Positions 18,399 through 60,196 of a DNA stretch of 64,000 nt are shown here, piece by piece (position 1 is the first letter of the stretch; each line of letters starts with the position of its first letter). The stretch is taken from the NCBI GenBank assembly GCA_014360685.1, contig JACIXB010000023.1, forward strand, positions 9,825-73,824, in the 5' to 3' direction. The DNA comes from Actinomycetota bacterium (lineage in GTDB: Bacteria; Actinomycetota; Geothermincolia; Geothermincolales; RBG-13-55-18). The position numbers and the translations under genes were made by a program. The notes under the pieces are model-generated. The model ran no database searches, had not been told where the DNA came from, and was given only the letters and a program-made list of their open reading frames with translations.

Positions 18399-18626
18399 CC
18401 GGTCACCTCCCTTTGCCCGTGCGGGTCTTCCCGCTTGATACACTCCTGCCCGACGTAACGGTCGTCTGGATCCGTCAAGAAAACGGTTCCGTCACCCCGG
18501 CGCGCGTTACCTGCCTCTCCCGGCTGGCTCGCGTCCATTTCTCCTCTCCTTCCCCCGGTATTCACCCCTCCCTTCCGCCGTGCCGTAAAGCCCTGCCCCG
18601 CGTCGACAACGGGAAGGGGACCCTGG

Positions 18627-21751: not shown

Positions 21752-21754
21752 GGG

Positions 21755-22975: not shown

Positions 22976-22979
22976 GGAG

Positions 22980-24623
22980 ATGTGGATACGGGATGTGGCC
23001 AAGGACATCAAGGAACGCCGCATATCCGGGATAATATTCCAGCACGAGGCCGAGCCGTTGCACAACCGTCCTCAGGACCTGGCCCGGGCCAAGGAGATGC
23101 TGGTCGAAGCGTTGGGCGAGGAGTGGGTCACCGACGACCCGGTGATCCTCATCGGTTACTCCCGCGACCAGGCGCCTTTACCCGCCCAGTACCCCCACCT
23201 GGTGGTCATGCCCGAGACCACTGAGGAGGTGGCGGAGGTCTACCGCATCGCCAACCAGTGCCGGGTGGACGTGATCCCCATGGGTACCGGCCTCACCACC
23301 ATGGCCCTGCACATACCCCTTTACGGAGGCATAATCATGGACCTCCGGCGCATGGATAAGATACTGGAAGTGGACGGGGAGAACATGTACATGGTCATCC
23401 AGCCGGGGGTCAACTACCTGGCCGCCCAGGTGGAGGCCCAAAAGGTGAAATGCCGGGTGCTCAACCCCTCCACGGCGGCCACCGCGGGGGTGATCTCCAA
23501 CCATGCCTTCTGCAACATCAACACCCTGGCCTCCAAGTACGGTTTCGGCATAGACAACATAATCGACATGACCATGGTCCTGCCCGACGGGACCATTTTG
23601 AAGACGGGGCCGGCCGCCTACGGGGCGGTTAAAGCCCACGTGCCGGGGCCGGGGCCGGACATGGCCTCCCTCTTCCGCTATGCTTTCGGCACCCTGGGAA
23701 CGGTCACGGAGATGACCCTGCGGCTGTACCCGGAGCCGGAGCACATTTACCAGATATTCCCTGCCTACGAGAAGGACGACCTCAAGTGCGTCATCGACGT
23801 CCTCTACAAGGTGGCCAACGAGAACCTGACCCTGGAGCTGGCCCACATGCAGAACTCCTTCTTCGGCATCTTCGTGGGGGCCACCAATGCCCAGGCCAGC
23901 GCCATCGCCGGGACCTTCCCCCGCAACAACCTGTTCACCATTTTCTCCGGTTCCACCCCGGAGGAGGCGCGGCTCAAGGCGGAGATCATCCAGCGCGAGA
24001 TCCTGAAGATCGACCCCGAATGGGAATTTTTGCCTCCGGAGGCGGTGGAGGACCTCACGTCCGATCTGCGCAGCGTGAACCTGGACCGCTGGCAGAAGTA
24101 CTTCAACGTCACCGTACGGGTGATGAGGGTGCGCGGTTCGTTCCTCATCGGGGCCCTCATCGGTCACCTGGATAACTTCCTGGAGGCGGAGCGCAGCATG
24201 CGCGTCGCCACCAGCGACCAGGCCGGCCACACCGAGGACAACCTGCCGCCGGACGACGCTTCCACCTATCTCCAGCCCTACCACATGGGGCGTTCCGCCT
24301 ACATGGAGTACGACGTCTATTCCAACCAGGGGGATAAGGACGACAACATGCGCATGTTCATGACCTACATGCGCGCCATGTTCACGGGCATTTTGGGGCA
24401 TGGGTTGGTCCTGGCCTGCGGGGCGATACCCTTGACCAAGGGAATGCCCGTGCCCTTACCGGAAGGCATGCCCCAGCTGGATGATCTCATGCCGCTGGTC
24501 ATGCCCAACAGCACGACCTTCACGGACACCTTCACCGCCTTCAAGATGGCCGTGGACCCCAACAACATATCCGCCCGAAGGTGGGATTACGAGACGGGCT
24601 TGTGCAAGAAACTGACCCTTTGA
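22980..24623 (+). CDS. FAD-linked oxidase family protein (GlcD-like, divergent)
   Basis: VVMPETTEEVAEVYRIANQCRVDVIPMGTGLTT..GIIMDLRRMDKILEVDGENMYMVIQPGVNY. 547 aa. Confidence 0.7.
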   Translation: MWIRDVAKDIKERRISGIIFQHEAEPLHNRPQDLARAKEMLVEALGEEWVTDDPVILIGYSRDQAPLPAQYPHLVVMPETTEEVAEVYRIANQCRVDVIPMGTGLTTMALHIPLYGGIIMDLRRMDKILEVDGENMYMVIQPGVNYLAAQVEAQKVKCRVLNPSTAATAGVISNHAFCNINTLASKYGFGIDNIIDMTMVLPDGTILKTGPAAYGAVKAHVPGPGPDMASLFRYAFGTLGTVTEMTLRLYPEPEHIYQIFPAYEKDDLKCVIDVLYKVANENLTLELAHMQNSFFGIFVGATNAQASAIAGTFPRNNLFTIFSGSTPEEARLKAEIIQREILKIDPEWEFLPPEAVEDLTSDLRSVNLDRWQKYFNVTVRVMRVRGSFLIGALIGHLDNFLEAERSMRVATSDQAGHTEDNLPPDDASTYLQPYHMGRSAYMEYDVYSNQGDKDDNMRMFMTYMRAMFTGILGHGLVLACGAIPLTKGMPVPLPEGMPQLDDLMPLVMPNSTTFTDTFTAFKMAVDPNNISARRWDYETGLCKKLTL

Positions 24624-25256: not shown

Positions 25257-26318
25257 TTGGCCGAGGTCATCGTGGTTGGCGCCGGGTTGGCAGGCCTGGT
25301 GGCGGCCATTAACTGCGCACGGTCCGGGCACCGGGTATGGGTCCTGGAGAAGGGGGAGTGGGTGGGGGGGGATCCGCGCATCAGGCCCACGGTGGATGTG
25401 ACTCCCATGGAGCCGGAGAAGCTGGGCCGCTTCATCGGCATCGACCTCGGCCCCCCTTTCGTGGTCCCCACGCGGGAATTCCTGGTGGACGTTTACGGGA
25501 AGAGATTCCTCTTCCCCGGCGAATATTTCAGCCTCCACTCCGTGGAGAGGGGGAGCCGCTCCACCTCCCTGGATTCATACCTCTACGAAAGGGCCCGGGA
25601 GGCCGGCGTGGAGTTCGAGTTCGGGGCGGAAGTCGGTTCCCGGGAGGAGTTCTCCCGCCTTCCGGCCGACACCATCGTGGCCACCGGGCTGGAGGCGGAA
25701 CCTTTCCTGGCCCTGGGGCGGCCCTACCTCGACGTCTTCGGATTCGTGGCCGCGGCTCCCCACCAGGGAGAGCCGCGTATCCTGGGGTACTTCGACCGCC
25801 ATACCAGATATTACCATTACTGCGCCAACCTCCACGGCACGGCATTCGCCCTGGCCTTCAATACCCGTCCCCTGCCGGGTTCCGCGTGCCGGGAATGGGC
25901 TGGTAGGCTCGAGGAGGAGGGTTTTCGGTTCCCTGAATGGCGGCCCCATAAGGGGGTGGTGGCCACCAGGGGGATCGCCGCCCCCACCCTGTTCGCCGGG
26001 AACAAGATACTGGCCGGCACCCTGGCCGGCATACAGGATCCGCTGTTCCTATTCGGGGTTCACGGTTCGCTTCTCTCGGGGAAGATAGCGGCCATGGCCA
26101 TCGAGGACAAGGAGCGCGCCTGGCGGCTTTTCCGCCGCTTCACCTCCCGTTATCCCTACATGTGGCTTTACAAGAGGATCTTCGACCTTCAGTCGCATTT
26201 TGCGCGCCGCCCGGGATTGAGGGCGGCCTTCGGGGCCCTGTCGAGGTTCCCGGACCTTTTTCGGCCTCTCCTGGGCGGAGCCCTGAAATCCGTCCCCGGT
26301 TTCGGGATGCTGGATTAG
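25257..26318 (+). CDS. GGR-like FAD-dependent oxidoreductase, paralogue P1
   Basis: VIVVGAGLAGLVAAINCARSGHRVWVLE..VGG, ERGSRSTSLDSYLYERAREAGVEFEF, and TLFAGNKILAGTLAGIQDPLFLFGVHGSLLSGKIAAMAIED. TTG start with gggagg upstream. Confidence 0.8.
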   Translation: MAEVIVVGAGLAGLVAAINCARSGHRVWVLEKGEWVGGDPRIRPTVDVTPMEPEKLGRFIGIDLGPPFVVPTREFLVDVYGKRFLFPGEYFSLHSVERGSRSTSLDSYLYERAREAGVEFEFGAEVGSREEFSRLPADTIVATGLEAEPFLALGRPYLDVFGFVAAAPHQGEPRILGYFDRHTRYYHYCANLHGTAFALAFNTRPLPGSACREWAGRLEEEGFRFPEWRPHKGVVATRGIAAPTLFAGNKILAGTLAGIQDPLFLFGVHGSLLSGKIAAMAIEDKERAWRLFRRFTSRYPYMWLYKRIFDLQSHFARRPGLRAAFGALSRFPDLFRPLLGGALKSVPGFGMLD

Positions 26319-26334
26319 GAAGGGAGATCTCGGG

Positions 26335-27459
26335 ATGGCGGCCAAGAGGGTGGTCATCGTCGGGGCCGGCTTGGCCGGCCTGTGCGCGGCCATAACCGCA
26401 CGCAAGCTGGGCTACGAGGTTCATTGCGTGGACCGTTTCCAGCGGGTAGGCGGAATGCCCGAAGCCCATCCCTTCGTGGATTCCACCCCCTTCGACCCGG
26501 TGCTCATGTCCCGTTTCCTCGGCGTACCGATAGGCGAGCCGCAGGTGGGCCCTTGCGAGAATTTCCACGTCTACGCCTTCGGAAAGCTGTACCGCCTCGA
26601 CCCTTCTTTCTCGCGCCTGCACAACGTGGAACGCGGGCCCAGGAGGTCGGCCATCGACCGCTATCTCCATGATTTGGCGCTGGACATGGGGGTGACCTTC
26701 GAGTGGGGAAACCCGGTACTCGGCCGCAAGGACCTGGCCCAGTTCCCGCCGAACACCATCGTGGCCACCGGGCCCTACCCGGAGGTCTTCGAGGCCCTGC
26801 GTATCCCGCACGAGACGGCTTACGGATACGTGATGAGCGGGGTCTACCGTCCCTGGGGGGAAAGGTCCTACGCAAGGCGGTGCGCCGTGTATTTCGACCG
26901 CTATACCCGCGACTATTGTTATCTCCCTGCCGCCAACGGCATCGTGGCCGGGCTGTTCTTCGCCCGCCGCCCGGTGGGCGAGCGGCAGCGTGCCTTGTGG
27001 GAAAGGCAGATCAGGGAAACCGAGGGCGTGGAGTTCAAGACCTGGAGGTTGGAAAGGGGCTTTTTCGCCTCTCGCTATCCATGCCAGCCCCGGCTTTTCG
27101 CCGGGGACAAGATACTGGCCGGCACCCTGGCCGGGGCCCAGGACCCGGGTACCTACTTCGGGTGCCACGGGGCAATGGTCTCGGGCAAGATAGCCGCCAT
27201 CGCGTTGGAGGACAAGGCCTTGGCTCAGGAGATGTTCGACCTCTGCAACCGGAGCTTCAACGCCATGTGGTTCCTGCGCCGGGTGGCCATCAACTACATG
27301 CCGGAATTCCTCCGCAAGTCCTTGCTCAGCACCGTCCTGGGATTCGTCGCCAAATGGGAGATCCTGGGCAGGATGCAGGGAAGGAGCCTGCAGCGGATGA
27401 TTCCCGGCTGCCTGCTCCTGTTGCATATGGATAAATATTCCAAGTATCTGAATATTTAA
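26335..27459 (+). CDS. GGR-like FAD-dependent oxidoreductase, paralogue P2
   Basis: VVIVGAGLAGLCAAITARKLGYEV, ERGPRRSAIDRYLHDLALDMGVTFEW, and RLFAGDKILAGTLAGAQDPGTYFGCHGAMVSGKIAAIALED. An unusual AT-rich segment encodes the C-terminal tail. Confidence 0.8.
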   Translation: MAAKRVVIVGAGLAGLCAAITARKLGYEVHCVDRFQRVGGMPEAHPFVDSTPFDPVLMSRFLGVPIGEPQVGPCENFHVYAFGKLYRLDPSFSRLHNVERGPRRSAIDRYLHDLALDMGVTFEWGNPVLGRKDLAQFPPNTIVATGPYPEVFEALRIPHETAYGYVMSGVYRPWGERSYARRCAVYFDRYTRDYCYLPAANGIVAGLFFARRPVGERQRALWERQIRETEGVEFKTWRLERGFFASRYPCQPRLFAGDKILAGTLAGAQDPGTYFGCHGAMVSGKIAAIALEDKALAQEMFDLCNRSFNAMWFLRRVAINYMPEFLRKSLLSTVLGFVAKWEILGRMQGRSLQRMIPGCLLLLHMDKYSKYLNI

Positions 27460-27584
27460 ATACCTGGTTTCCGGGGCACGAGGTCTTCGCGCCCGTCTCT
27501 CCGGGTGGACGCGAATGGCTCTCGTTCCGCCGGTGATAGGAATGAACATGCAAGTCTTGGTGTAGGCTTGAAGGGGGATGGAAG

Positions 27585-28682
27585 GTGAAAGACAAAGGAC
27601 CCATCTACGTGGTGGGGGCGGGACTCGCGGGGCTTACCGCGGCCATCAACCTGGCCCGGCAGGGCAGGGAGGTTGTGGTCCTGGAGAAGGGGAAACGGGT
27701 CGGCGGGCTGGCCGTCTATAACCCCTCCCCGCACGGTACCCCCATGGATGCCGAGGCCATGTCCGGATACACGGGCATAGACCTGCTTCCGGCCATGGTT
27801 CCCCTGAAGGAAGGTGTGATCTCCATATGGGGGAAGAGGTACCGACAAAAGTTTCCCCGCAACGTGCAGGCCTGGATGATCGAAAGAGGGCCGCGAAAAT
27901 CGTCCATGGACCATTACCTTTATCGACTGGCGTTGGAGGAAGGGGTACGCTTCGAGTTCGACCAGCCCGTGGCGAGCGACCGACAGATCAACGAGTTGCC
28001 CCGCAATTCCATCCTCGCCACCGGCCTGCACGTGGACGGCTTCGAAGCCGCCAACGTCCCTTACCAGATCCTGCACGGCTATTTCGCCAAGTGCCGGGTT
28101 CCCTGGAAAGAAGCCCGGGTGACCATGTACTTCGACGACTACACGCCGGATTACGCCTTCACCTGTTCGGTTAACGGTATAGCCTTCGCCCTCATCTTCA
28201 ACCGCTACCGCCCGGTTGCCAGGTGGGAGATGGAGAAGTTCGCCGAGCAGGCGGTGGTCGAAGACGGGTATCCCTTCAGGAGATTCCAGGTCCTGGAAGG
28301 AGGTGCGGCCCCGGTTCGCCGTTTCACCAACCCCCGGCTTTTCCAAGGGGACATGATACTGGCCGGCACGGTGGCCGGGATGATGGACCCTGTCCTCTTC
28401 TTCGGGATGCACGGCGCCTTCCTCTCCGGGAAGATAGCGGCGCGGGCGGTGAACGATCCCGCCGGAGCTTATGACGAGTTCCGCCGGTTGAACGTGACCT
28501 TTTACCCGCTGCTGGCCGCCAAGCGCCTATTGGATATAAGCCCCCGTGACCTGGCCATAAAATATCCGGCCCGCCTTGCCATGCGTCTCATGCCCCTTTT
28601 TGGCCCCCTGCTCATGCGCCAGGCCTTCAAGGTGAACGTGACCGGATACGGCCGGTTAAAGGGGTCAGGTCTTGAATTTTGA
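27585..28682 (+). CDS. GGR-like FAD-dependent oxidoreductase, paralogue P3. The last 5 codons and the stop lie inside the MITE-like element.
   Basis: IYVVGAGLAGLTAAINLARQGREVVVLE..VGG, ERGPRKSSMDHYLYRLALEEGVRFEF, and RLFQGDMILAGTVAGMMDPVLFFGMHGAFLSGKIAARAVND. Confidence 0.8.
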   Translation: MKDKGPIYVVGAGLAGLTAAINLARQGREVVVLEKGKRVGGLAVYNPSPHGTPMDAEAMSGYTGIDLLPAMVPLKEGVISIWGKRYRQKFPRNVQAWMIERGPRKSSMDHYLYRLALEEGVRFEFDQPVASDRQINELPRNSILATGLHVDGFEAANVPYQILHGYFAKCRVPWKEARVTMYFDDYTPDYAFTCSVNGIAFALIFNRYRPVARWEMEKFAEQAVVEDGYPFRRFQVLEGGAAPVRRFTNPRLFQGDMILAGTVAGMMDPVLFFGMHGAFLSGKIAARAVNDPAGAYDEFRRLNVTFYPLLAAKRLLDISPRDLAIKYPARLAMRLMPLFGPLLMRQAFKVNVTGYGRLKGSGLEF

Positions 28683-28769
28683 TACATCCGAGTACCGAAA
28701 AAATCGATGTCCGATTCCTCCCTTCTCGAAAGGACACAAGGCATCCCGGTATCAAAATCCAAGACCTGA
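28665..28769 (+). mobile_element. MITE-like palindromic element, copy 1 (105 bp, 21-bp TIRs)
   Basis: Left TIR tcaggtcttgaattttgatac (28665..28685). Right TIR gtatcaaaatccaagacctga (28749..28769). The two are reverse complements with 1 mismatch. A homologous copy lies at 35379..35485. Confidence 0.7.
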
Positions 28770-28830
28770 TCTCATGTCTCCTGGACGATCGGTATCCCGT
28801 CGCCCGCACCTTGTCCGTCGCCTGCTTCCC

Positions 28831-29742: not shown

Positions 29743-31236
29743 TCACTTAATACCGCACAGGTGGAGCGCCGATTCCAGGGCCTCGGAGCGGTGTGGCTGG
29801 GTGCGCGAGAACTCCAGGAGGCTCATCTTGCAGGCCTGCCCGGAACCTCCCCCATGGGTGGCGGAATGGAGGATGGATCCCAATCCCCAGGAGATGTTCT
29901 CTATCAGCCGGACCATGCGCAGGCGGTGTTCCGCGGGCACGTCGTCCACGCCCTTCAGGAACCGTTCCATCCAGTGGGAGATCTCCGGGTTCTTCATCTC
30001 CTTCTCCCCGGGGCAGCAGGACAGGATGCCGCCGGTGATATCCTCGGCCAGGCGTATGAGGTCGAAGACGGCCCGCGAGGCGTAATACTTCGTGTTGTTG
30101 GCCAGCACCGGGTCGGCCACGTAACCCGCTCCCGGGAGCTGGAAACCGCGCATGGCGGCGGCAAGCCCGCAGGAATACATGGTCTCGGAGATGGCTACCA
30201 TGTCCGCCAGCTTATCCTGCACGTGGGCCGACCTCTCCAGCCCGTTGTAGCGGGCCATGAGTTGGGTGGCGGCGATGAGAACGTCAGCCCATCCCGATTT
30301 GCATCCCCCGGTGGTGGGGCGATGGGAGGTGCCGAAGAGGTTCACCAGTTCCCCCAGGTACTCCACTTCCCCGCAGAGAAAGACCCTTTCCCAAGGCACG
30401 AAGACATCATCGAAGATCACGATGCATTCATGCACCCCGTAGTAAATATTTCCCAGGTCCATCTCCGCTCCTTCCTTCCTGCGGTCGTCCTGGGACTGCC
30501 GCACGGAGATGTGGACCAGACCGGGGGCATCGGCCGGCACGGCACAGGCCACGGCGTAGTCCTCGGCGCCGGCGCGGTGGGTGGTGCAGGGAAGGACCAG
30601 CTTTTCGTGGGAGAATGCGGCTCCCGTCTGGTGCAGCTTGGCCCCGCGGATCACGATTCCCTCCCGGTTCCTGTCCACGACCCTGAGGTACATGTCCGGG
30701 TCGGGTTGTTCCTGGGCGGGGATCTTCCTCCCTCCCTTGGGATCGGTTATGGCCGGGCAGGCCAGAAGATCGTTGCGCTGCATGTAGATTATCCATTCGC
30801 GCAAGCGCGAGTGGTAGGACGTCCCCTTCTCCAAATCGATCTTTCGGGTGATGTACAGCAGGGGGGCATAGGCGTTCTGGATGCAGCGGAAGGAACATAT
30901 CCCCAACCTGCGGTTCATGTAGCGCGTGATGTTCACCTTGGCCACCAGCTGGTCCACGCTCTGCGGGACGTGTTGGAAGAAGGAAACGGGCTCCCCGGTG
31001 AGATGGGATTCAACCGTCAGGCGGTCGGCGAGCTCCGGCTCGTGGACCATGTCGTAGGTGGCGGCCACGGCGTGGGCAGCCGCCCGCACCGCGGGGTGCT
31101 CCAGGGCGTTGTCCAGCCGCCTCCCGTCGATGTAGATGGGGATGGACATTTCCTCGATGCTCTTCAGGTATTCGGCCCCGGTCTTCAATTCCTCCTCCCT
31201 CCCAAGGTTTTCCTTCTTCTTGCTGACGGCGTGCAA
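29743..31236 (-). CDS. abfD: 4-hydroxybutyryl-CoA dehydratase / vinylacetyl-CoA isomerase-like protein (AbfD/HpaB family)
   Basis: ITDPKGGRK..DPDMYLRVVDRNREGIVIRGAKLHQTGA is conserved. The cluster-ligand pattern CSFRC (C-x3-C) plus HRPTTGGC (H-x6-C) matches the clostridial enzyme. The C-terminus ...GIK also matches. The start may be a TTG at 31188. Confidence 0.75.
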   Translation of the reverse strand: MHAVSKKKENLGREEELKTGAEYLKSIEEMSIPIYIDGRRLDNALEHPAVRAAAHAVAATYDMVHEPELADRLTVESHLTGEPVSFFQHVPQSVDQLVAKVNITRYMNRRLGICSFRCIQNAYAPLLYITRKIDLEKGTSYHSRLREWIIYMQRNDLLACPAITDPKGGRKIPAQEQPDPDMYLRVVDRNREGIVIRGAKLHQTGAAFSHEKLVLPCTTHRAGAEDYAVACAVPADAPGLVHISVRQSQDDRRKEGAEMDLGNIYYGVHECIVIFDDVFVPWERVFLCGEVEYLGELVNLFGTSHRPTTGGCKSGWADVLIAATQLMARYNGLERSAHVQDKLADMVAISETMYSCGLAAAMRGFQLPGAGYVADPVLANNTKYYASRAVFDLIRLAEDITGGILSCCPGEKEMKNPEISHWMERFLKGVDDVPAEHRLRMVRLIENISWGLGSILHSATHGGGSGQACKMSLLEFSRTQPHRSEALESALHLCGIK

Positions 31237-31303: not shown

Positions 31304-31978
31304 TCATCGTGAGCGAACCCCTCCCGGACTTCCGGGCCCATTGGTCCGCGCCTTATCGCCCTCGGGCGAGTTTCCCGGAACGCGCCTTTTCCCGGGGGTG
31401 CGGCTGTTGTCCTCCCGTTTCCGGCACCCCTCCAGGACCAGGCCGGAGAAGACCTCGGCGATCTCCCCGGTGGAGCGCTCTCCGGCCGGGTCGTACCAGG
31501 AGGAGAGCCAGTTGCACATCCCGGAAACGGCCCGGGCCACCATGGGTACGTCCATCTCACGGAAGGAACCCTCCCGCATGCCTTCCTCCAGGACGCCCCG
31601 GAGCACGGTCTCGTATTCCCGGCTCAATGCGCGCACCTTTCTCCTCCGACGCGGGGGGAGCTCGCCCTCGTCGGCCAGGTAAACGTTGGTGATGTCGCCG
31701 TGCCTTGCGAACATGTCCAGGTGCAGCGCGATGAGGCGGCGCAGTTTCTCCTCAGCGGGGAGAGGAGAACTCTCGATCTCCCGCGCCCCGTCGAGCAGCT
31801 CCGTCACCGCCGATTCGCAGATGGCGTAGAGCAGGTCGTACTTGGAATCGATGTAGTGGTAGAGGGCCGGCTTGGTGATCCTCAGCCGGCGGGCGATTTC
31901 CTCCAGGGAGGTCCTCCGAAAGCCTTTCTCCCGAAAAAGCCGGGCGGCAACGGCTCGGATTTCCTCTTGGCGGGTCAC
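31304..31978 (-). CDS. TetR/AcrR-family transcriptional regulator
   Basis: N-terminal HTH FRRTSLEEIARRLRITKPALYHYIDSKYDLL. GTG start with ggagg upstream. Confidence 0.85.
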   Translation of the reverse strand: MTRQEEIRAVAARLFREKGFRRTSLEEIARRLRITKPALYHYIDSKYDLLYAICESAVTELLDGAREIESSPLPAEEKLRRLIALHLDMFARHGDITNVYLADEGELPPRRRRKVRALSREYETVLRGVLEEGMREGSFREMDVPMVARAVSGMCNWLSSWYDPAGERSTGEIAEVFSGLVLEGCRKREDNSRTPGKRRVPGNSPEGDKARTNGPGSPGGVRSR

Positions 31979-32002: not shown

Positions 32003-32054
32003 CTTACTTACCAGTAGGTAAGCCGATTGTAAAACGATTTATCTCCATAGTCAA
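32003..32054 (-). promoter_or_regulatory. Promoter (TTGACT-17-TACAAT, minus strand) followed immediately by a 20-bp palindromic operator candidate
   Basis: On the minus strand, ttgact is at 32054..32049 and tacaat at 32031..32026. The palindrome cttacttacc|agtaggtaag at 32003..32022 has 8/10 arm matches. It starts 3 nt after the -10 box and lies 25 nt before the TetR GTG. Confidence 0.6.
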
Positions 32055-32436
32055 GCATGCTCGGAGTTTTTGATTGACGATAACCGCTTCGGCCGCGAGT
32101 GGAATGATCATGGCCGCGGGAAGAATAAGAGCGACCCCGGGGCCCTTTCCTCCTTACCGGGTTGCTCAGAGGCCAGGCCAGGCCGTGGAGAAGTGTTTGG
32201 TTGCCAGATGGGGGAGGCCGGAGGCTGGGAACTGATGACCGTCAAGGCGGCGGGATACGGAAAAAGGGAAAATGGTCCTTGATAGAGGAGATATAAAGTG
32301 ATGCCGGTCCGAGGAGGCACGGTTCCGGGGAGTGACGATCGTGGAACCACGGGCGGACGGTTTACCGAGAATGTAAGAACGTTCGTGCCGTGCCGCCGGT
32401 AAATAAGGCTGATGTCACCGGGTAGGAGGTCAAGGC

Positions 32437-33477
32437 TTGGGCGGGTTGGAAGACACGAGGAAGCCCGAGGCGGAAGGCGCGGAACCCCGGCTGGGAAGAA
32501 GGGAATTCCTGGAAAAGCTTGGGATGGGCCTTGTGGGGCTGGGAGGGCTTTACGCAGCCATGGCACTTCCCGGTTGCGGGGGCGGAAGCCCGGGCACCTG
32601 CCCTACGGAAGGGGGCACGGCTGCGGAGGCGGGTGATATACCAGCCCCCGCAGAGGGAGCGGGGATCTACCGGGGGCTGGTGGTGGCGGAGGGTAAGGAC
32701 CCCCGGACGACGCTCAGGTTGGGCTTGCACGAGTGGGGCGGCCTGGAAGCCCTGGAACCGACGGGCAAGAAAGTGCTCCTCAAGGTGAACGCCGCGTTCG
32801 CGCGGTCTCCGGAGGACGCCGCCACCACCCACCCGGACCTGGTCTCGGAGGCGGTGCGCCTTTTCCTTTCGGCGGGAGCGTCCGAGGTGGTGGTATACGA
32901 CCACATCCTGCAGGACCTCGTGGAGCCCACCCTGGAAAAAAACGGTATAGGACCGGCGGCGAGGGAGGCGGGGGCGAGGCTTGCCGTTTACGCAGTGAAA
33001 AAACCCGGTCCTTCCCGGATCGTCCAGGTTCCAGGAGGAAAGGCTCTTTCCTCCATAGGCATACTGGAGGAGGTCTTCCAAGCCGACATAATCGTCAACA
33101 TGCCCAAGGCCAAGCACCACAGCGGAGCGGGACTCACCCTGGCCATGAAGAACCTCATCGGCTGCACCCAGAACATGGGTAGGATGCACGACGTGGACCT
33201 GCACCGCGCCATCGCCGAGCTCAATGCCCTTATCCGCCCCTCCTTGATAATACTTGACGCCACCAGCGTATTGTTGGATAACGGCCCCGGTGGGCCGGGA
33301 ACCGTCGCCCGTCCGCAAAAGATAATCCTGGGCACAGACCCGGTGGCCGTGGACGCCTACGCCTGCGGCCTCTTCGACAGGTCGCCCAAGAAGATCCGCT
33401 ATCTCTCCCACGGGGAGGAACTGGGGGTGGGCACCATCGATTACCACTCCCTGGGCGTGAAGGAGGTAGAGGCTTGA
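32437..33477 (+). CDS. DUF362-domain protein with Tat signal and lipobox (predicted exported lipoprotein)
   Basis: GRREFLEKLGMGLVGLGGLYAAMALPGCGG (twin-arginine plus LPGC). The core KVLLKVNAAFARSPEDAATTHPDLVSEAVRLFLSAGASEVVVYD is typical of DUF362. TTG start with aggagg 7 nt upstream. Confidence 0.7.
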   Translation: MGGLEDTRKPEAEGAEPRLGRREFLEKLGMGLVGLGGLYAAMALPGCGGGSPGTCPTEGGTAAEAGDIPAPAEGAGIYRGLVVAEGKDPRTTLRLGLHEWGGLEALEPTGKKVLLKVNAAFARSPEDAATTHPDLVSEAVRLFLSAGASEVVVYDHILQDLVEPTLEKNGIGPAAREAGARLAVYAVKKPGPSRIVQVPGGKALSSIGILEEVFQADIIVNMPKAKHHSGAGLTLAMKNLIGCTQNMGRMHDVDLHRAIAELNALIRPSLIILDATSVLLDNGPGGPGTVARPQKIILGTDPVAVDAYACGLFDRSPKKIRYLSHGEELGVGTIDYHSLGVKEVEA

Positions 33478-33677
33478 CCTTTTTGCTTGGGGATAAGCGG
33501 CGGGGCACGGGCTGGGCCTCGTGCGTAGTCAACGCCCGGATGATAGGTGGAGCATGGATGACGCTCTCGAGAGAATGGCCTCCTGGAGCCGGTCTGCGAA
33601 GGGTGTCCGGAAACTTTTAGGCGTCCCGATACGGGCGGGGCCCCGTCGAGAAAACAAGAAAGGTCAGTGGAAGAAAA

Positions 33678-34661
33678 ATGGGCGACAGGCGCGCGGGAAA
33701 TAAGAAACGACGCGCTCTCTCCTGGATCCGGAAGGCGGTTCAGGCCGTTTTCCTGTCCCTCTTCGTGATCCTGGCCTGGTCAGCCTCCTATCCCCCAGGG
33801 GCCTTGAACGAGAACCTCTTCCTGCGCCTCGATCCCCTGGCCGCCTTCGTGGCCGCCTCCTGGAGCGGGCTGTGGGTTTACCTTCTCCCCGCCTGGCTCC
33901 TGCTCCTGGCCACAGCCTTCAGCGGGCGGTTCTTCTGCGGCTGGGTTTGCCCCCTGGGCACGGTATTGGAATGGGTGCCCTCCCGGCGCGGAAGGCGGCG
34001 GAGGAGGAAATTCTCGGAACTGCGGGTAGTGGACTTGACCGGAAAGGAGATAGGGGAGGGGGAGAGGAGGGTCCGATTAAAGTACGCCTTCCTGGTCCTA
34101 TTCATCGCCCTTTCTTTGGCGGGCGTCAACCTGGCTTGGGCCTACGACCCATTGGTCATCGCCAACCGGACCCTGGCCTTCCTCTTCTCCGGCGGTATCC
34201 CGTTTCTCTTCCTGGTGCTGCTCCTCCTGGCGGTCATCGCCGGCCCCCGCTTCTGGTGCCGGGAGATGTGCCCGCTGGGAGCCTGCCTGTCCCTCACCGG
34301 CATGCTCGGATCCAGGCTTCCCGCGGATGCCAGCCCGCTCTCCCTGGTCAAGGAGGAAGAATCGTGCATCCACTGCGGGAGGTGTTCCCTGGCATGTCCT
34401 TTCGAGATAACCGAGGTGGCTGACTCGCGGCATACTGGCAGGCTGGCCATCCCGGACTGCGCTCTGTGCGGGGAATGCGTTGCTTCCTGCCCGTGCGAGG
34501 GCGCCCTGTCCCTGCGCTCCTTCGGGCTCGTCCTCTCCTCGTCCGGGACGAGGAAGGGCGGAGACACGGCGATCCGGGACGCGGGGAAGGAGGAAGGCAA
34601 TGTCATTACCCATCCGCGGCGGATGAGAGACGGAAGTCCCGGCTCGGGGGTGGCCCCGTAA
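33678..34661 (+). CDS. NapH/MauN-family polytopic membrane Fe-S protein
   Basis: FCGWVCPLGT and FWCREMCPLGA membrane CxxxCP motifs between hydrophobic helices. C-terminal CIHCGRCSLACP and CALCGECVASCP. Confidence 0.75.
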   Translation: MGDRRAGNKKRRALSWIRKAVQAVFLSLFVILAWSASYPPGALNENLFLRLDPLAAFVAASWSGLWVYLLPAWLLLLATAFSGRFFCGWVCPLGTVLEWVPSRRGRRRRRKFSELRVVDLTGKEIGEGERRVRLKYAFLVLFIALSLAGVNLAWAYDPLVIANRTLAFLFSGGIPFLFLVLLLLAVIAGPRFWCREMCPLGACLSLTGMLGSRLPADASPLSLVKEEESCIHCGRCSLACPFEITEVADSRHTGRLAIPDCALCGECVASCPCEGALSLRSFGLVLSSSGTRKGGDTAIRDAGKEEGNVITHPRRMRDGSPGSGVAP

Positions 34662-34804
34662 CCGGTTCCATGATTAGGAAGATTTTACCTCATGGGTCAC
34701 GGCGGCAGGCGACGGGGAAAGCGGTGGGGGAACGCGCGGTCAGGGACTGTGCGGCCCCCAAAGGCACTCGATCTTACCCGGCGCATAGAGGAGGTCTTGG
34801 AGAA

Positions 34805-35389
34805 ATGTGGAAGCTGAGGTTGGCGCGGCGGGAGTTCCTGGCCTGGAGCCTTGCCGGGGCGGCCACCGCCATCACCTACGGGCTGTGGCCACGTGATTCT
34901 GGCGCTTCGCCGCTGCTCAGGCCCCCGGGAGCGCAGGACGAGGAGGATTTCGTGTCCCGCTGCCTGCGCTGCCAGGAATGCGTGCGCGCCTGCATGACCG
35001 GGTGCCTGGAACCGGCGGGAAGGGAATTCGGGGCGGGCAAGATCTGGACCCCCCGTTTCAATCCTTCACTGGCCAAGTGCGAGTTCGAGCTCTGCGGCCG
35101 GGCCTGCGCCCGCGCCTGCCCCGTGGGGGCCATCCGTCGTCCGGGAGACGAGGAGGTGCGCATCGGGACAGCGTCCGTGGACAGGAAGAAGTGCATCGCC
35201 TGGAACGAGGGCAAGGACTGCCTGGTCTGCTACGAGCGCTGTTCCTACGGGGCCATCGAGCCCGATTCCAGGGGCAGACCCCGTGTGAAGTCCAAACGGT
35301 GTACGGGTTGCGGAGCCTGCCAGAACACCTGCGTGACCTGCCCCGACCCGGCCATCGTGGTCTATCCGATAAAAGGGGACAGGTCTTGA
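34805..35389 (+). CDS. Tat-exported poly-[4Fe-4S] ferredoxin (NapG/MauM-like). The last 3 codons and the stop lie inside the MITE-like element.
   Basis: MWKLRLARREFLAWSLAGAATA twin-arginine signal. Four Cys clusters: CLRCQECVRAC, CGRACARACP, CLVCYERC and CTGCGACQNTC. ATG at 34805 has gaggagg upstream. The longer ORF from 34466 overlaps the NapH-like gene. Confidence 0.75.
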   Translation: MWKLRLARREFLAWSLAGAATAITYGLWPRDSGASPLLRPPGAQDEEDFVSRCLRCQECVRACMTGCLEPAGREFGAGKIWTPRFNPSLAKCEFELCGRACARACPVGAIRRPGDEEVRIGTASVDRKKCIAWNEGKDCLVCYERCSYGAIEPDSRGRPRVKSKRCTGCGACQNTCVTCPDPAIVVYPIKGDRS

Positions 35390-35485
35390 ATTTTGATACA
35401 CCCGAGTGCCGAGTCGTTTAAACCGGGTGCCTTGCCCTTGACGATTTGGATACATGACATCCGAGTATCAAAATTCAAGACCTGA
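35379..35485 (+). mobile_element. MITE-like palindromic element, copy 2 (107 bp, perfect 20-bp TIRs)
   Basis: caggtcttgaattttgatac (35380..35399) and gtatcaaaattcaagacctg (35465..35484) are perfect reverse complements. Subterminal ...acccgagtgccga and catccgagtatc match copy 1. Confidence 0.7.
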
Positions 35486-35573
35486 TCCTTAGATTAGGCA
35501 TCCCGCTCCGGAATTGGTGGTAAAATGTTCTCGGCCCGTTTCCGGCCGCCACCACGGCGAGGAAAGGAGCACC

Positions 35574-36707
35574 ATGGATGCGCGCATGACGGTCGAGGAA
35601 TGCCTGGAGATGTGGAGGAATCCCTACCCCCGCCTGGCCCGCATGCGGGAGGAAGGGGAAAGGCCGGTGGCCTTCTTCTGTTCCTATACCCCGGAGGAGA
35701 TACTCCACGCCGCCGGTTTTACGCCGGTGCGGCTCATGGGTGCCGTGCGCACCATAACCCATGCCGACGCTCACCTCCAAGCCTATTGCTGCTCCCTGGC
35801 CCGCACCGACCTGGACATGGCCCTGGCGGGAGAGCTTGATTTCCTGGAAGGAGCGGTTTTCGTGCAGACCTGCGATACCATGATGCGCCTCTCGGACATC
35901 TGGCGTCGCAACACCTCCTTTCCCTTCCACGGGGACCTGGTCTTACCCATCCGCATGGGCGAGGAGATCTCCCTCCCCTTCCTGGTGGAAGAGGTGCGCC
36001 GCTTCCGGGGAAGGGTGGAAGAGTACCTGGGGCGGAGCATCCGGGACGATGCCCTGGAAGAAAGCATCCACGTGTACAACCGCAACCGGCGGATGGCGGA
36101 CAGGCTTTATCTGCTGCGCCGGGAGAGGCCGGGAGCCCTGGACGGCCTTTCAGCCACCGCCTGCCTGGTTGCCGGTTTCTGGATGAGGCGCGAAAAGCAC
36201 AACGATCTTCTGCACCATATTTTGGAAGAAGCCGAGGCCGGGAAGGAGAAAGCCGCGGAGAAGCTGCCCCTGCTGGTCAGCGGGAGCGTCTGCGCCACCC
36301 CCGACCTTTACGAGCTTTTAGCCGAGCTGGATGCCGAGGTGGTTGACGACGACCTCTGTTGCGGTCACCGCTATTTCGACGCCTTTGCCGACGAGAACAT
36401 CTCACCGGAGGAGGCACTGGCCCGGCGCTTGTGGCAACGGGTCAACTGTCCGGCCAAACACCAGTGCCTGGAGGACCGGGCGGAGCGCCTCCTGAGGCAA
36501 GTGGGGGACAGCGGAGCGAAAGGTGTGGTGTTCTTCCTGCAATCCTTCTGCGAACCGCACCTCTTCGACATCCCCTACCTGAGGAACCGCCTGCGGGAAG
36601 AGCTTGGCATACCCTCTCTGGTTTTGGAGAGCGAGCTGCAATCCTTCTCCCGCGGGCAGCTCCGGACCAGGCTGCAGGCCTTCCTGGAGACCATCCGCGG
36701 GGTGTGA
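35574..36707 (+). CDS. 2-hydroxyacyl-CoA dehydratase / benzoyl-CoA reductase BcrC/BadD/HgdB-family subunit
   Basis: VAFFCSYTPEEILHAAGFTPVRLMG N-terminus and C-terminal VVFFLQSFCEPHLFD, typical of the HGD-D family. aaggag RBS. Confidence 0.75.
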   Translation: MDARMTVEECLEMWRNPYPRLARMREEGERPVAFFCSYTPEEILHAAGFTPVRLMGAVRTITHADAHLQAYCCSLARTDLDMALAGELDFLEGAVFVQTCDTMMRLSDIWRRNTSFPFHGDLVLPIRMGEEISLPFLVEEVRRFRGRVEEYLGRSIRDDALEESIHVYNRNRRMADRLYLLRRERPGALDGLSATACLVAGFWMRREKHNDLLHHILEEAEAGKEKAAEKLPLLVSGSVCATPDLYELLAELDAEVVDDDLCCGHRYFDAFADENISPEEALARRLWQRVNCPAKHQCLEDRAERLLRQVGDSGAKGVVFFLQSFCEPHLFDIPYLRNRLREELGIPSLVLESELQSFSRGQLRTRLQAFLETIRGV

Positions 36708-36889
36708 GCGGCGATGCCCGATCAGGTGGCATGGGAAGGGGCGAGTGGCCGGAAGAGGCCCGGAATGGACGCGCCGGAAGCGTGGCATGGGTCGGGGAGC
36801 AAGGCGCGCGATGGAAGGGGTTTGATCTGGAAATAAATGCTAAATATTTCAATACCGCATAAACGTGATCGGGCGAAGGAGGTTCGGGG

Positions 36890-38125
36890 ATGAGCTCCGG
36901 CGAGAATCGCGACGAGGAGAGGGAAGCAAAGGAAAGGCGACGCATCAAGTCCGGGGAAGCCATGCGCGACCTGATGACCAAGTACTACATGGAGGCCAAG
37001 GCCGCCGAGGGGACGGACAAGCACATCGCCTGGATCACCAGCGGGGGGCCGGTGGAGCCGCTCATCGCCTTCGACGTCATCCCCGTGTACCCCGAGAACC
37101 ACGGCGCCATGTGCGGGGCCGCCCACATGAACGTGGAGCTCTGCGAGGTGGCGGAATCCCGCGGCTTCTCGCGGGACCTGTGTTCCTATGCCCGCGGAGA
37201 CATAGGGAGCGCCATCACCAAGGGCGGACCCATCGGAGGACTGCCACGGCCCACTTTCCTGGTGTGCTGCAACAACATCTGCAACACGGTGTTCAAATGG
37301 TACGAGGAGCTCGCGCGCTTCTTCGACGTCCCCCTGTTCATCTTCGATACCCCCTTCGTGAGGGGAGGACTGCCCTCCCATCACCTGGATTACACCCGCC
37401 GCCAGATGGAGGAATACATATCTTTTCTGGAAAGGATTACCAGCCGGGAATACGACGAGGCACACTTCGTGGAGGTGGCGGCCAAGTCCCTCTACGCCTC
37501 CGGCCTGTGGGCGGAGGTGCTGGCCTGCAACCAAGCCCGGCCGGCCCCCATGACCTGCTTCGACGCCTTCATCCTCATGGCCCCCATCGTCACCCTGCGC
37601 GGGACCCAGGAGGTGGTGGACTTCTACCAGGGCTTGCTCCAGGAGATGAGGGACCGCGTCGAGCAGGGCATCGGCATCCTTCCTTCCGAAAAGTATCGCC
37701 TGCTGTGGGACAACATCCCGGTGTGGTACGAGATGCGTAACCTGGGTCGGCTTTTCATGGAACTGGAAGCCTGCCTGGTAGCGGACACCTACACCAGCGC
37801 CTGGACCTTCCAGGAAGTGGACACCGAGGACCCGCTGGAGGCCATGGCCGCCATCTACACCGAGGTATACCTGAACATCAACCTGGAGCGCATGGCGGAC
37901 AAGATAGAGTCCCTGGCCCGCCGCTACGAGGTGGACGGCATGGTAATGCATTCCAACCGCAGCTGCAAGCCCTATTCACTGGGCCAGTACGACCTGGCCA
38001 AGGAGTTCACCCGGCGCACCGGAAAGCCGACCCTGATTATCGAGGCCGACCATACCGACTCGCGCTGGTACAACCGTGCCGAGGTGGAAGGGCGCATCAG
38101 GGACTTCGTGGAAAACCTCCTTTAA
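36890..38125 (+). CDS. 2-hydroxyacyl-CoA dehydratase-family subunit (HgdA/BcrB-like partner)
   Basis: HIAWITSGGPVEPLIAFDVIPVYPENHGAMCGA.., LCSYAR, and C-terminal DGMVMHSNRSCKPYSLGQYD. gaaggagg RBS. Confidence 0.75.
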   Translation: MSSGENRDEEREAKERRRIKSGEAMRDLMTKYYMEAKAAEGTDKHIAWITSGGPVEPLIAFDVIPVYPENHGAMCGAAHMNVELCEVAESRGFSRDLCSYARGDIGSAITKGGPIGGLPRPTFLVCCNNICNTVFKWYEELARFFDVPLFIFDTPFVRGGLPSHHLDYTRRQMEEYISFLERITSREYDEAHFVEVAAKSLYASGLWAEVLACNQARPAPMTCFDAFILMAPIVTLRGTQEVVDFYQGLLQEMRDRVEQGIGILPSEKYRLLWDNIPVWYEMRNLGRLFMELEACLVADTYTSAWTFQEVDTEDPLEAMAAIYTEVYLNINLERMADKIESLARRYEVDGMVMHSNRSCKPYSLGQYDLAKEFTRRTGKPTLIIEADHTDSRWYNRAEVEGRIRDFVENLL

Positions 38126-40823: not shown

Positions 40824-42167
40824 TCAGTCCAGCCCCGCCTCGTGCTCCGGCAGGATGAAATATTTTACATCCCGCGCGTAGCGGCGCAGCTCACCCCGGA
40901 AATCGGGATGGGCCACGCTGATGAGGGCCCGGGCCCTCTCGCGGAGGTTCTTCCCCTTGAGGTTCACGCACCCGTACTCCGTGGCCACGTACATGACGTC
41001 GGTGCGGGTGAGGGTGACCACCGCTCCCGGGCGGAGCTGGGGCACGATCTTGGAGACCGTCTCCCCGGTTTCCTTGTCCACCACTGTGGAAGGGGTGACG
41101 ATGAAGGCCTTCCCTCCCCGGCTGAGCCAGGCCCCGCGCGTGAAGTCCACCTGGCCCCCGGTGGCCGTGTATTGGATGGGGCCGAAGGATTCCGAGGCGC
41201 ACTGCCCGGTGATGTCTATCTCCAGGGTGGTGTTAATGGATATGAGCTTGTCGTTCATTCCTATTATGTACGGGTCGTTGTTGTAGCTGATGGGGGACAG
41301 GTAGATCATGGGGTTGTCGTCCATCCAGTCGTAGAGTTCCTGGGAGCCCAGCCCGAAATAGCATAACATCTGGTAACGGTGGAAATTTTTTTGCGTGTTG
41401 TCCAGGGCCCCCGCCTGGAAGAGCTTCATGTAGGCGTCTCCCATCATCTCCGTGTGGCAGCCAAGGTGTTTCTTCTCCAGCAGGAGCTCCCCGATGGCGT
41501 TGGTTGTGCCCCCGATGCCCAGCTGCACGGTGGAGCCGTCCTCGACGAGGTCGATGATGTTCTCGGCGATGGCCCGGTCCACGTCGCTCACCGGCTCCGG
41601 GGGCAGGGCGAAAACGGGGTGGTGGTTCTCCACCACCTTGGTCACCTGGCTGACGTGCAGCCAGTTGGGCCCGTGCACCACGGGCTGCTTCTCGTTGACC
41701 TCCACGTAGATCTCATCCAGCCGGTCCACCACGTCCAGGTAGTTGGCAAAAAGCCCCAGGTTGAGGTAGCCGTTCTTGTCCATGGGACCGGTCTGCACCA
41801 TGAGCTTGCGGTAGCCCACGTCCTCGACCGCCAATCGGGTGACCTGATGGAAATGATAGGGGGTGTGGGTCATAAGCCCCGCGGCCATGGCGGAGCGGTC
41901 CAGGGGAGAGGTGTAGTAGTTGTCGATGAGGAGGTTCTTCTGGTACTCGGGCTTGAGGATGTCGAAGATGGGGGCCAGGATGATGAAGCTTCCCATCAGC
42001 ACGTTCTCGATCTCCCCGGCCATGGCCCGCTTCACCAGCGCCTCCAGCAGGGCCACGGGGGTGGAGGAGGCGCCGCTGCAGAAGACCTTGTCCCCCGATT
42101 TTATGCCCTTTACCGCTTCCTCGGGGGTGGTCAGCTTGGATTTGTAGAGGTCCTTCCACTTACTCAT
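40824..42167 (-). CDS. Acetyl-CoA hydrolase/transferase family protein (4-hydroxybutyrate or butyrate CoA-transferase-like)
   Basis: MSKWKDLYKSKLTTPEEAVKGIKSGDKVFCSGASSTPVALLEAL, internal GIGGTTNA, and C-terminal AHPDFRGELR. gggagg RBS. Confidence 0.8.
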   Translation of the reverse strand: MSKWKDLYKSKLTTPEEAVKGIKSGDKVFCSGASSTPVALLEALVKRAMAGEIENVLMGSFIILAPIFDILKPEYQKNLLIDNYYTSPLDRSAMAAGLMTHTPYHFHQVTRLAVEDVGYRKLMVQTGPMDKNGYLNLGLFANYLDVVDRLDEIYVEVNEKQPVVHGPNWLHVSQVTKVVENHHPVFALPPEPVSDVDRAIAENIIDLVEDGSTVQLGIGGTTNAIGELLLEKKHLGCHTEMMGDAYMKLFQAGALDNTQKNFHRYQMLCYFGLGSQELYDWMDDNPMIYLSPISYNNDPYIIGMNDKLISINTTLEIDITGQCASESFGPIQYTATGGQVDFTRGAWLSRGGKAFIVTPSTVVDKETGETVSKIVPQLRPGAVVTLTRTDVMYVATEYGCVNLKGKNLRERARALISVAHPDFRGELRRYARDVKYFILPEHEAGLD

Positions 42168-42474
42168 CTCATGCCTCCCTCTTGCCATCTTTTGGATACG
42201 AACCCGTTATGGGAACGAAGTTTTTCCGCTCTTTGCACCTCCCACCTCCAGGTTTGAATGGGGACCGGTCATGGAAACAATATAACTCTACTATCCCCCG
42301 CTTCTTCCACGCGCTGACAGGGCTTTTTCCGCGTCGGCCGGGCCACGAAAGCCTTCCCTCTCTCCTTGCACGCACGGAATGTGTTTCTTCATGCCGCCGG
42401 CCACTTCTATTATTCCACCGCTGCGCTTCTTTTCTCGGGTTATCGAATAGCAGGAAAAGGATACCACGGCGCCA

Positions 42475-47152: not shown

Positions 47153-47268
47153 CCGCCGCTGGCGCTTGTAATACAATCGGGACGTAGGAGAGGGAATGCC
47201 GGCAAACAAGGGAGTGATGGGGGATGCTCCGCTGGGTTGGCTCGATACCGGCCGGAACACGAGGCCCG

Positions 47269-60159: not shown

Positions 60160-60188
60160 GCGGTCTTATCCCCGGTCAATGGATCGAA

Positions 60189-60194: not shown

Positions 60195-60196
60195 TA

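Follow-up and report, generated by a model that had tools for sequence, protein, structure and literature searches.

A three-gene module on an actinomycete contig probably encodes a dedicated extracytoplasmic oxidoreductase, composed of a DUF362 protein (gene g1), a NapH-like membrane iron-sulfur protein (g2) and a NapG-like polyferredoxin (g3). The genes lie in the same direction at positions 32437-35389 (+) of the window, i.e., the whole 64,000-nucleotide stretch of contig JACIXB010000023.1 that was analysed. DUF362 would be the catalytic subunit, and the three proteins would be assembled in one complex on the outer face of the membrane; we give this reading a probability of about 0.6. A model that had read the letters without database searches (hereafter, the sequence-only reading) had proposed an exported DUF362/NapH-NapG module as an extracytoplasmic redox system. 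This proposal is supported: the three co-directional genes it listed are all present, and the triad is conserved in many phyla, whether searched from the DUF362 or from the NapG-like side. As judged from the conservation counts in genome and metagenome loci, the arrangement is far beyond chance.

DUF362 and the polyferredoxin form a conserved pair

The conservation of the pair was established in two directions. In the forward direction, 80 genome loci were retrieved with a DUF362 alignment, and all their six-frame open reading frames (ORFs) were searched with g1, g2 and g3. NapH/NapG-like sequence is found directly downstream of DUF362, on the same strand, in 68/80 loci. The NapH-like and NapG-like parts are fused in one ORF in 44/80, and divided between two genes, like g2 and g3 of the window, in 8/80, the latter arrangement being restricted to the closest Actinomycetota. 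A contig end cuts 8/80 loci, and long ORFs in which the NapG-like part alone is detectable account for another 8/80. Finally, 9/80 loci have room downstream and no polyferredoxin gene, and 3/80 are truncated.

In the reverse direction, 80 metagenome loci were retrieved with the NapG-like domain (alignment A4, 5 sequences). DUF362 is adjacent in 64/80, directly upstream in 43 and directly downstream in 21, the downstream DUF362 being often present as two or three tandem paralogues. No adjacent DUF362 is found in 16/80 loci, at least 10 of which are cut at a contig end and only three of which have full flanks (L135, L136, L159). Clustering of the genes flanking the 80 genome loci yields no third conserved partner, as the largest other family is present in only 7/80, and the recurrent neighbours look, when judged by eye from their sequences, like lineage-specific housekeeping genes. 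Because both search directions pair them and no third neighbour is conserved, DUF362 and the polyferredoxin constitute a self-contained, reciprocal and phylogenetically wide unit.

According to record titles, the hosts belong to Actinomycetota, Negativicutes (two Sporomusa genomes), Armatimonadota, Chloroflexota, Verrucomicrobiota, Kiritimatiellia, Lentisphaerae, Planctomycetia, delta-proteobacteria/Thermodesulfobacteriota, Acidobacteriota, Spirochaetes, Zixibacteria, Sumerlaeota, WOR-3 and Endomicrobiales. One of them, Sporomusa silvacetica DSM 10669, is cultivable and carries the pair at ~557.5-559.9 kb of NZ_CP155573.1 (locus L058). DUF362, a very large family without an assigned function, and the NapH-NapG polyferredoxin, a model of Sec/Tat dual insertion, are now linked as a reciprocal, phylum-spanning pair, and two orphan families become one testable system, cultivable hosts included. 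To our knowledge, and within the literature searched, this link has not been described before.

Several loci encode 2-3 DUF362 paralogues per polyferredoxin, a pattern in keeping with interchangeable catalytic subunits that draw on a shared electron module. A longer form of the locus is also observed (L128 5595-8211 and L030 4645-7292, as well as L031, L037, L041 and many of L125-L160), in which a small lipoprotein of ~165 aa and a second, divergent DUF362 paralogue with a Tat (twin-arginine translocation) signal stand beside the canonical DUF362 and the polyferredoxin. The small lipoprotein matches Pfam DUF6599 in the L128 copy; the L030 copy has no Pfam match and is linked to it by eye only. 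The polyferredoxin gene comes first in these metagenome loci and last in Armatimonadota. As a separate observation, Syntrophaceae-like delta-proteobacterial loci share their upstream neighbours irrespective of whether the polyferredoxin is absent (L022, L035, L057) or present (L034, L049, L053, L054), which suggests a recent loss or relocation of the polyferredoxin in the first three.

Features of the three proteins

g1 (32437-33477, +) encodes a protein of 346 aa, translated from a TTG start codon. By sequence reading, a ribosome-binding site, AGGAGG, is located 7 nt before this start (32424-32429, +). The protein matches Pfam DUF362 (PF04015) with an E-value of 1.2e-47 and 163 bits, for a cutoff of 24; the domain spans residues 113-310 (nt 32773-33366) and covers profile positions 1-199 of 200. 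The only NCBIfam match is to an uncharacterised model, 'Npun_F2552', with 54 bits for a cutoff of 500. The assignment of the first protein to DUF362 thus holds, and no characterised NCBIfam family is matched; full-text literature searches on DUF362/PF04015 give no functional study, in agreement with the sequence-only reading that the family has no established function. The exact g1 protein is also present on one Logan contig, followed by the same downstream genes, namely g2, g3, a pair of HGD-D genes (2-hydroxyacyl-CoA dehydratase/benzoyl-CoA reductase-like) and an ATPase gene. Its nearest relatives are 59-75% identical and come from metagenome-assembled genomes of uncultured Actinomycetota, the relatives in Candidatus Geothermincola being 49-56% identical.

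The N-terminus of g1 contains, in this order, the Tat motif GRREFL (residues 20-25; nt 32494-32511, +), a weakly hydrophobic segment and the lipobox LPGC (residues 44-47; nt 32566-32577, +), whose cysteine is C47. Both signals named by the sequence-only reading are therefore present, but the lipobox is non-canonical, with Pro at -2. At least 90% of 20 sequences, which include close and distant homologues (alignment A1), retain the lipobox Cys, and a lipobox-like Cys follows the RR motif in only ~55% of the wider DUF362 family (259 aligned relatives). The RR motif itself is found in 244/259 of these relatives. As the RR motifs are nearly invariant in the alignments of both g1 and g3, the Tat signals of the two proteins are supported, and g1 is probably Tat-exported and lipid-anchored. 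The host is most likely an uncultured anaerobic actinomycete and probably monoderm, which fits a lipid anchor on g1.

Six residues, N118, K226, H228, K238, H251 and D274, are invariant (100%) in the 259 relatives, in which K116, T131 and D306 reach a conservation of 98% or more and a G-P-x-G-P-G loop is present. The same alignment contains no conserved Cys besides that of the lipobox. Since Tat export is near-universal in the family and no cofactor motif is recognisable, DUF362 may be loaded with something in the cytoplasm before export, as this combination suggests. An exhaustive profile search gives 12,266 representative clusters of the family at 50% identity (E<=1e-3), and the DUF362 profile finds nothing meaningful among PDB sequences even at E<=10. 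Among the long DUF362 relatives examined, none is a polyferredoxin-DUF362 fusion. Two relatives have other architectures: P0353 (778 aa) carries its DUF362 domain at ~497-770, preceded by an extended polytopic membrane part that has TPR-like repeats, in place of a Tat signal, and P0256 ends with a linker rich in Pro/Thr, followed by a hydrophobic tail anchor. Both are other means of fixing DUF362 to the membrane.

g2 (33678-34661, +) encodes a polytopic membrane iron-sulfur protein of 327 aa, identified as NapH-like by Pfam, NCBIfam, hydropathy and motifs. Its Pfam domains are two Fer4_5 and Fer4 families. A hydropathy heuristic predicts four hydrophobic helices, at about residues 14-34, 63-81, 132-150 and 169-187. 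Two CxxxCP motifs, C87xxxC91P and C194xxxC198P, are found beside very basic loops, and the C-terminal domain contains two CxxCxxCxxxCP motifs, starting at residues 230 and 261. From the hydropathy and the positively charged N-terminus and loops, the CxxxCP loops are presumably cytoplasmic. The best NCBIfam matches are NapH/MauN, consistent with the NapH/MauN architecture predicted at the outset, with 84.6 bits against NapH/MauN (TIGR02163; cutoff 213.05) and 72.6 bits against NapH (NF007013; cutoff 234).

g3 (34805-35389, +) encodes a NapG-like, putatively exported polyferredoxin of 194 aa, as indicated by its start and ribosome-binding site, its NCBIfam matches and its invariant Cys. The sequence-only reading described it as a twin-arginine ferredoxin with four cluster motifs, and both elements stand. 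The start had to be moved: the ORF spans 34466-35389, but the supported start is the ATG at 34805, preceded by GAGGAGG, from which the protein begins MWKLRLARREFL. Another gene caller places the start at a GTG at 34724. With the ATG start, the gap between g2 and g3 is 143 bp. The Tat motif ARREFL occupies residues 7-12, and an LRPPGA motif follows the signal. Sixteen Cys in four groups, together with the RR, are invariant across 12 homologues, and these Cys are enough for four predicted [4Fe-4S] clusters. g3 obtains 83.4 bits against NapG (NF007012; cutoff 269) and 56.9 bits against NapG/MauM (TIGR00397; cutoff 178.85). Among solved structures, its nearest relatives are MvhB and FwdF, both electron-wire polyferredoxins.

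Likeness to known iron-sulfur systems

g2 and g3 together have the two-part architecture of NapGH (Escherichia coli, Wolinella) and MauMN: a membrane protein with four predicted helices, two CxxxCP motifs and, on the presumed cytoplasmic side, two ferredoxin motifs, and a Tat protein with four [4Fe-4S] motifs and LRPPGA. Their hidden Markov model (HMM) scores are nevertheless 2.5- to 3-fold under the family cutoffs. Because the scores are so far below the NapH and NapG cutoffs, the two proteins share the NapGH architecture but are, by this measure, orthologues of neither the Nap nor the Mau proteins. No NapA, NapB, NapC, Mau, molybdopterin or cytochrome c gene is found in those major ORFs of the window that were scanned; the sequence-only reading had noticed no NapA/NapB or other known catalytic subunit. 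Unlike in NapGH systems, the conserved partner here is DUF362, and the two parts are fused in most phyla.

This fused form has already been encountered in another context. Tooke et al. (2017) describe a polytopic polyferredoxin that is a NapH-NapG fusion with Sec/Tat dual insertion (PMC5449189). The example, which is the Q1NSB0 protein of MLMS-1, a delta proteobacterium, has its four-cluster domain outside, and reporter fusions show that Tat carries the region beyond the fifth transmembrane helix of this MLMS-1 protein across the membrane; the paper assigns it no function and mentions no DUF362 neighbour (PMC5449189). In our fused homologues, the order is a NapH-like membrane part, cytoplasmic ferredoxin motifs, an internal S/T-RR-x-F-L, a hydrophobic helix and the NapG-like domain, so that the RR motif precedes a fifth transmembrane helix. 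The ferredoxin motifs are not found in two fully read Verrucomicrobiota/Kiritimatiellia fused examples (L044, L026). The polytopic polyferredoxin is the same fusion as that of the L013, L034 and L063 homologues, a likeness of architecture and not a sequence comparison to Q1NSB0. By contrast, in the window and in the closest Actinomycetota the protein is split in two genes, and the RR now belongs to an N-terminal Tat signal. The version in the window is related to the polytopic polyferredoxin family as a split form.

NapH-like proteins are modular, passing electrons to extracytosolic reductases or from oxidases, and most of them are uncharacterised (Méheust et al., 2021; PMC8238504). The flavinylated NapH-like systems (NosR, PceC/RdhC and others that are uncharacterised) use the same PF12801 membrane link to connect electron pools to an extracytosolic oxidoreductase (PMC8238504). 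In our system, the relay is a four-cluster ferredoxin instead of an ApbE-flavinylated domain binding flavin mononucleotide, and the terminal partner is DUF362; Pfam detects no FMN_bind or ApbE domain in g1-g3. MsrPQ (YedYZ) is analogous in pairing a Tat-exported cofactor enzyme with a dedicated membrane electron partner, and it, too, occurs in two forms, either encoded by separate genes or fused into one Sec/Tat dual-inserted protein (PMC5449189). However, its proteins and cofactors are unrelated, with molybdopterin and haem b in place of a LarA-like fold and [4Fe-4S] clusters. The system is an instance of modular NapH-type extracytoplasmic electron transfer with a new LarA-fold partner.

DUF362 is predicted to have a LarA-like fold

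Structural modelling of the DUF362 protein had been suggested together with an inspection of its conserved Cys, of which only the lipobox Cys is found. The AlphaFold2 model of g1, built from alignment A1, has a predicted local distance difference test score (pLDDT) of 85 and a predicted template modelling score (pTM) of 0.81, with disorder confined to the signal and linker region. When this model is compared to the PDB with Foldseek, ranks 1-15 are all LarA, the malate racemase Mar2 or LarA-like nickel-pincer enzymes, and these are the only confident matches (probability 1.00 and E-values down to 4e-5 at the top ranks; template modelling scores of 0.33-0.46). The model thus predicts a LarA-like fold for DUF362, a first handle on the chemistry of this family. 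In agreement with this, DUF362 and the LarA N-terminal domain belong to one Pfam clan, CL0471 (PMC11770544), and the Pfam DUF362 model matches residues 82-245 of authentic LarA (E=1e-5).

The likeness extends to a short motif. In true LarA sequences of three species, taken from the PDB search, the segment reads E-x-H174-x-x-A-G-[FY]-S-G-G-R-K184-x-[ILV]-x-P-G, and in DUF362 it reads K-x-H228-S-G-A-G-L-T-L-A-M-K238-N-L-I-G. Both conform to a common motif, H-x2-A-G-hydrophobic-[ST]-x3-K-x-hydrophobic-hydrophobic-x-G, with the His, the A-G, the hydrophobic-then-hydroxyl pair, the Lys and the next hydrophobic residues in register. In LarA (5HUQ), His174 is a catalytic base and Lys184 carries the nickel-pincer nucleotide, both positions agreeing with the LarA sequences. 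That H228-x9-K238 corresponds to H174-x9-K184 of LarA is a well-motivated hypothesis, based on the shared motif, the match of the Pfam DUF362 model to LarA and the fold. One hhalign run, using 121 close LarA homologues, paired H228/K238 with H174/K184, with a score that was not significant. The invariant H251 might match the nickel ligand His200; it lies 13 residues past K238, compared to 16 for His200 in LarA, and hhalign placed it elsewhere. The second catalytic His of LarA, His108, has no clear DUF362 counterpart by hhalign.

DUF362 also differs from LarA in several respects. The LarA superfamily (PDB 5HUQ, 7S91) has Lar_N (PF09861) and LarA_C (PF21113) domains, whereas g1 matches PF04015 only. 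DUF362 is ~150 residues shorter, lacks the C-terminal domain, is probably Tat-exported and is paired with an iron-sulfur wire; we know of no LarA that is exported or has such a partner.

Proposed mechanism and alternative explanations

In the mechanism that we propose, g2 would take electrons from menaquinol, from a low-potential donor in the cytoplasm or from both, via its CxxxCP and two-[4Fe-4S] region, and g3, exported folded by Tat, would pass them along its four-[4Fe-4S] wire. g1 would also be exported folded by Tat, which implies that a cofactor or metal is loaded in the cytoplasm, and would be tethered at the membrane surface by its lipid anchor and a flexible Gly/Pro-rich linker. There, it might reduce or oxidise a small-molecule substrate outside the cell, using a LarA-like pocket formed by N118, K226, H228, K238, H251 and D274 as its active site. 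The electron flow could equally run in reverse. An electron-disposal role in this genome is plausible, because of the two putative cytoplasmic [4Fe-4S] clusters of g2 and of neighbouring genes from families that usually rely on ferredoxin or flavodoxin. If DUF362 is a redox enzyme, the pair would be a new terminal module for anaerobic extracytoplasmic electron transport.

A bolder version of this proposal is that Tat-exported DUF362 proteins represent a second, very large LarA-like branch. Their cofactor, either pincer-type or another new organometallic or organic one, would be tethered covalently to Lys and loaded in the cytoplasm, and its hydride or electron chemistry, in contrast to that of the redox-neutral racemases, would be coupled to the membrane via a dedicated NapH/NapG polyferredoxin; we consider this version doubtful, with a rather small chance of being right. 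If DUF362 carries a pincer-type cofactor, pincer chemistry would extend beyond racemases. If the bolder version is true, a kind of respiratory or electron-disposal enzyme outside the cytoplasm that has so far escaped notice would be widespread in anaerobic bacteria.

Several points weigh against DUF362 being a redox enzyme fed by the polyferredoxin. The 9/80 genome loci with room downstream and no polyferredoxin show that DUF362 can be encoded, and can perhaps function, where no partner gene lies next to it. There are also reports of extracellular DUF362-CBM9-dockerin proteins (PMC5742341), for which no source of electrons would be obvious. The chemistry of LarA is a redox-neutral hydride shuttling, for which a one-electron iron-sulfur wire is not obviously needed. 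The nickel-pincer biosynthesis genes larB, larC and larE are seen neither in the window ORFs scanned nor among the conserved neighbours of the 80 loci. The residue-by-residue correspondence with LarA is not significant by hhalign with any of three templates, i.e., a single LarA, the 121 homologues and a more diverse set including Thermoanaerobacterium and Isosphaera LarA, and the run with the diverse set aligned different regions; the LarA homologue search gave only sequences at least 77% identical, too close for a good profile. Finally, the predicted signal peptides rest on motif conservation, and the contact between DUF362 and the NapG-like domain is one that we infer.

The main rival is that the polyferredoxin serves as a maintenance or activation reductase for a DUF362 that itself catalyses a redox-neutral reaction outside the cell, for example by racemising or epimerising a hydroxy acid or sugar as LarA-type enzymes do. 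The NapH/NapG-like module would then do no more than hold an oxidation-sensitive DUF362 cofactor in its reduced state, by analogy with the presumed service of NosR to NosZ. The fold and motif kinship to LarA racemases/epimerases speaks for this possibility, and it better explains both the loci without an adjacent polyferredoxin and the secreted dockerin fusions (PMC5742341); moreover, the Nos gene cluster of nitrous oxide reductase includes a NapH-like protein (PMC8238504). However, a four-cluster wire and a membrane subunit in nearly every locus would be a heavy investment for occasional repair, and the LarA C-terminal domain and His108 are without clear counterpart in DUF362. We consider this rival unlikely, while still granting it an appreciable chance.

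Alternatively, the roles could be exchanged: the polyferredoxin would be the terminal extracytoplasmic reductase, acting on metals, humics or other acceptors, and DUF362 a non-catalytic lipoprotein for binding, docking or assembly. The system is common in anaerobes of sediment, peat and digesters, the nearest solved NapG-like relatives are pure electron wires, and DUF362 has no conserved Cys in its domain and no recognised cofactor motif, all of which would suit this exchange of roles. This is nevertheless improbable, given that six invariant polar residues (Lys, His, Asp, Asn) in motifs resembling the LarA active site are typical of an enzyme, that Tat export, near-universal in DUF362, speaks for a cofactor loaded in the cytoplasm, and that it is DUF362, and not the polyferredoxin, which expands in paralogues, as fits catalytic diversification.

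A different proposal concerns the source of the electrons. In this organism, the module could be the electron outlet of the neighbouring fermentative genes, conveying surplus reductant from flavodoxin or ferredoxin to the outside. It sits among flavodoxin, AbfD/HpaB-like, two HGD-D and FAD (flavin adenine dinucleotide) oxidoreductase genes. Two of these groups, the FAD-oxidoreductase paralogues on the upstream side and the HGD-D pair on the downstream side, also accompany the module in the closest relatives (L001-L004), and the two putative cytoplasmic [4Fe-4S] clusters of g2 could accept electrons from ferredoxin or flavodoxin. The synteny ends, however, at the closest clade, as L005-L008, L010 and all other phyla are without it, and even L002-L004 lack the TetR, AbfD-like and flavodoxin genes. 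We give this proposal very little chance; it is compatible with a dedicated DUF362 oxidoreductase, since it concerns the electron source and not the identity of the system. Lastly, a remnant or variant of the Nap or Mau accessory pair (NapGH/MauMN), suggested by the best NCBIfam matches and the shared architectures, is effectively refuted as a nitrate-reductase remnant by HMM scores far below the cutoffs and by the lack of Nap/Mau genes in the window ORFs scanned, DUF362 being the conserved partner in ~130 loci.

Genomic surroundings of the module

Upstream of the module, and divergent from it, lie genes for a TetR-family regulator (31304-31978, -; Pfam TetR_N, TetR_C_24), an HpaB/AbfD-family enzyme and a flavodoxin, all found by Pfam, so that the divergent operon described by the sequence-only reading is recovered. 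The TetR gene is not conserved beside the module in other loci, according to a synteny test. A promoter scan detects a sigma-70-like promoter, TTGACT-17-TACAAT, before the TetR gene (32054-32026, -), and a perfect palindrome, CTTACC-AGTA-GGTAAG, can be read just downstream of it (32007-32022). This palindrome looks like an operator for TetR autoregulation and lies 415 bp from the DUF362 operon. For the module itself, the scan for promoters and terminators gives nothing above background, and Rfam finds no riboswitch or RNA element near it.

Downstream of the module are the two HGD-D subunits, followed by a P-type ATPase. Only in its four closest relatives is the module likewise flanked by the FAD-oxidoreductase paralogues and the HGD-D pair, a clade-level synteny. 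The paralogues form a tandem array of three genes of ~365 aa each (25257-28682, +), with an inverted copy 7 kb upstream (18562-19728, -). The two that were scanned (26335-27459 and 27585-28682) are FAD/NAD-binding, geranylgeranyl-reductase-like oxidoreductases. The array and its inverted copy are seen as DNA repeats D1, I1 and I2, and the same array is located upstream of the module in L002-L004.

The repeat elements said to bracket the unit are indeed present, in two copies only in the window, as characterised by repeat and fold analysis. Copy A (28652-28775) marks the left end and copy B (35366-35491), in the same orientation and overlapping the g3 stop codon, the right end of a 6.7 kb block that extends from the flavodoxin through the NapG-like gene and includes the TetR and AbfD-like genes. 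Each is a hairpin element of ~120 nt, with AT-rich terminal inverted repeats of 24-25 bp (CAGGTCTTGAATTTTGATAC and its reverse complement), a variable interior and fold z-scores of -4 to -7.5. It could be a MITE-like (miniature inverted-repeat transposable element) or REP-like (repetitive extragenic palindromic) sequence, or the marker of a mobile or recombined block. A direct repeat, D5 (12522 vs 34240), was considered as a sign of a second NapH-like gene and rejected, being a chance match in an unrelated ORF of 144 aa.

More generally, the window is dense in genes of anaerobic, ferredoxin-linked metabolism (13883-15709, 20351-24623, 29743-31236, 35514-38125 and 40824-42188). These comprise an aldehyde:ferredoxin oxidoreductase, a GlcD/GlcF-like set (FAD_binding_4, CCG/Fer4), the HpaB/AbfD-family enzyme, the two HGD-D subunits, which have no obvious adjacent activator, and an acetyl-CoA hydrolase/transferase. 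Further downstream, a class A RNase P RNA is encoded at 60206-60585 (+; Rfam RF00010, 302.7 bits), and the ORF of 283 aa opposite to it (60166-61017) is probably spurious, because of the RNase P RNA on the other strand. Finally, two ORFs encode calcineurin-like metallophosphoesterases, one of 916 aa at 47224-49974 (+) and the other at 3298-4635 (-); polytopic metallophosphoesterases of the YkuE type are named by Tooke et al. (2017; PMC5449189) as one more family that may be inserted by both Sec and Tat.

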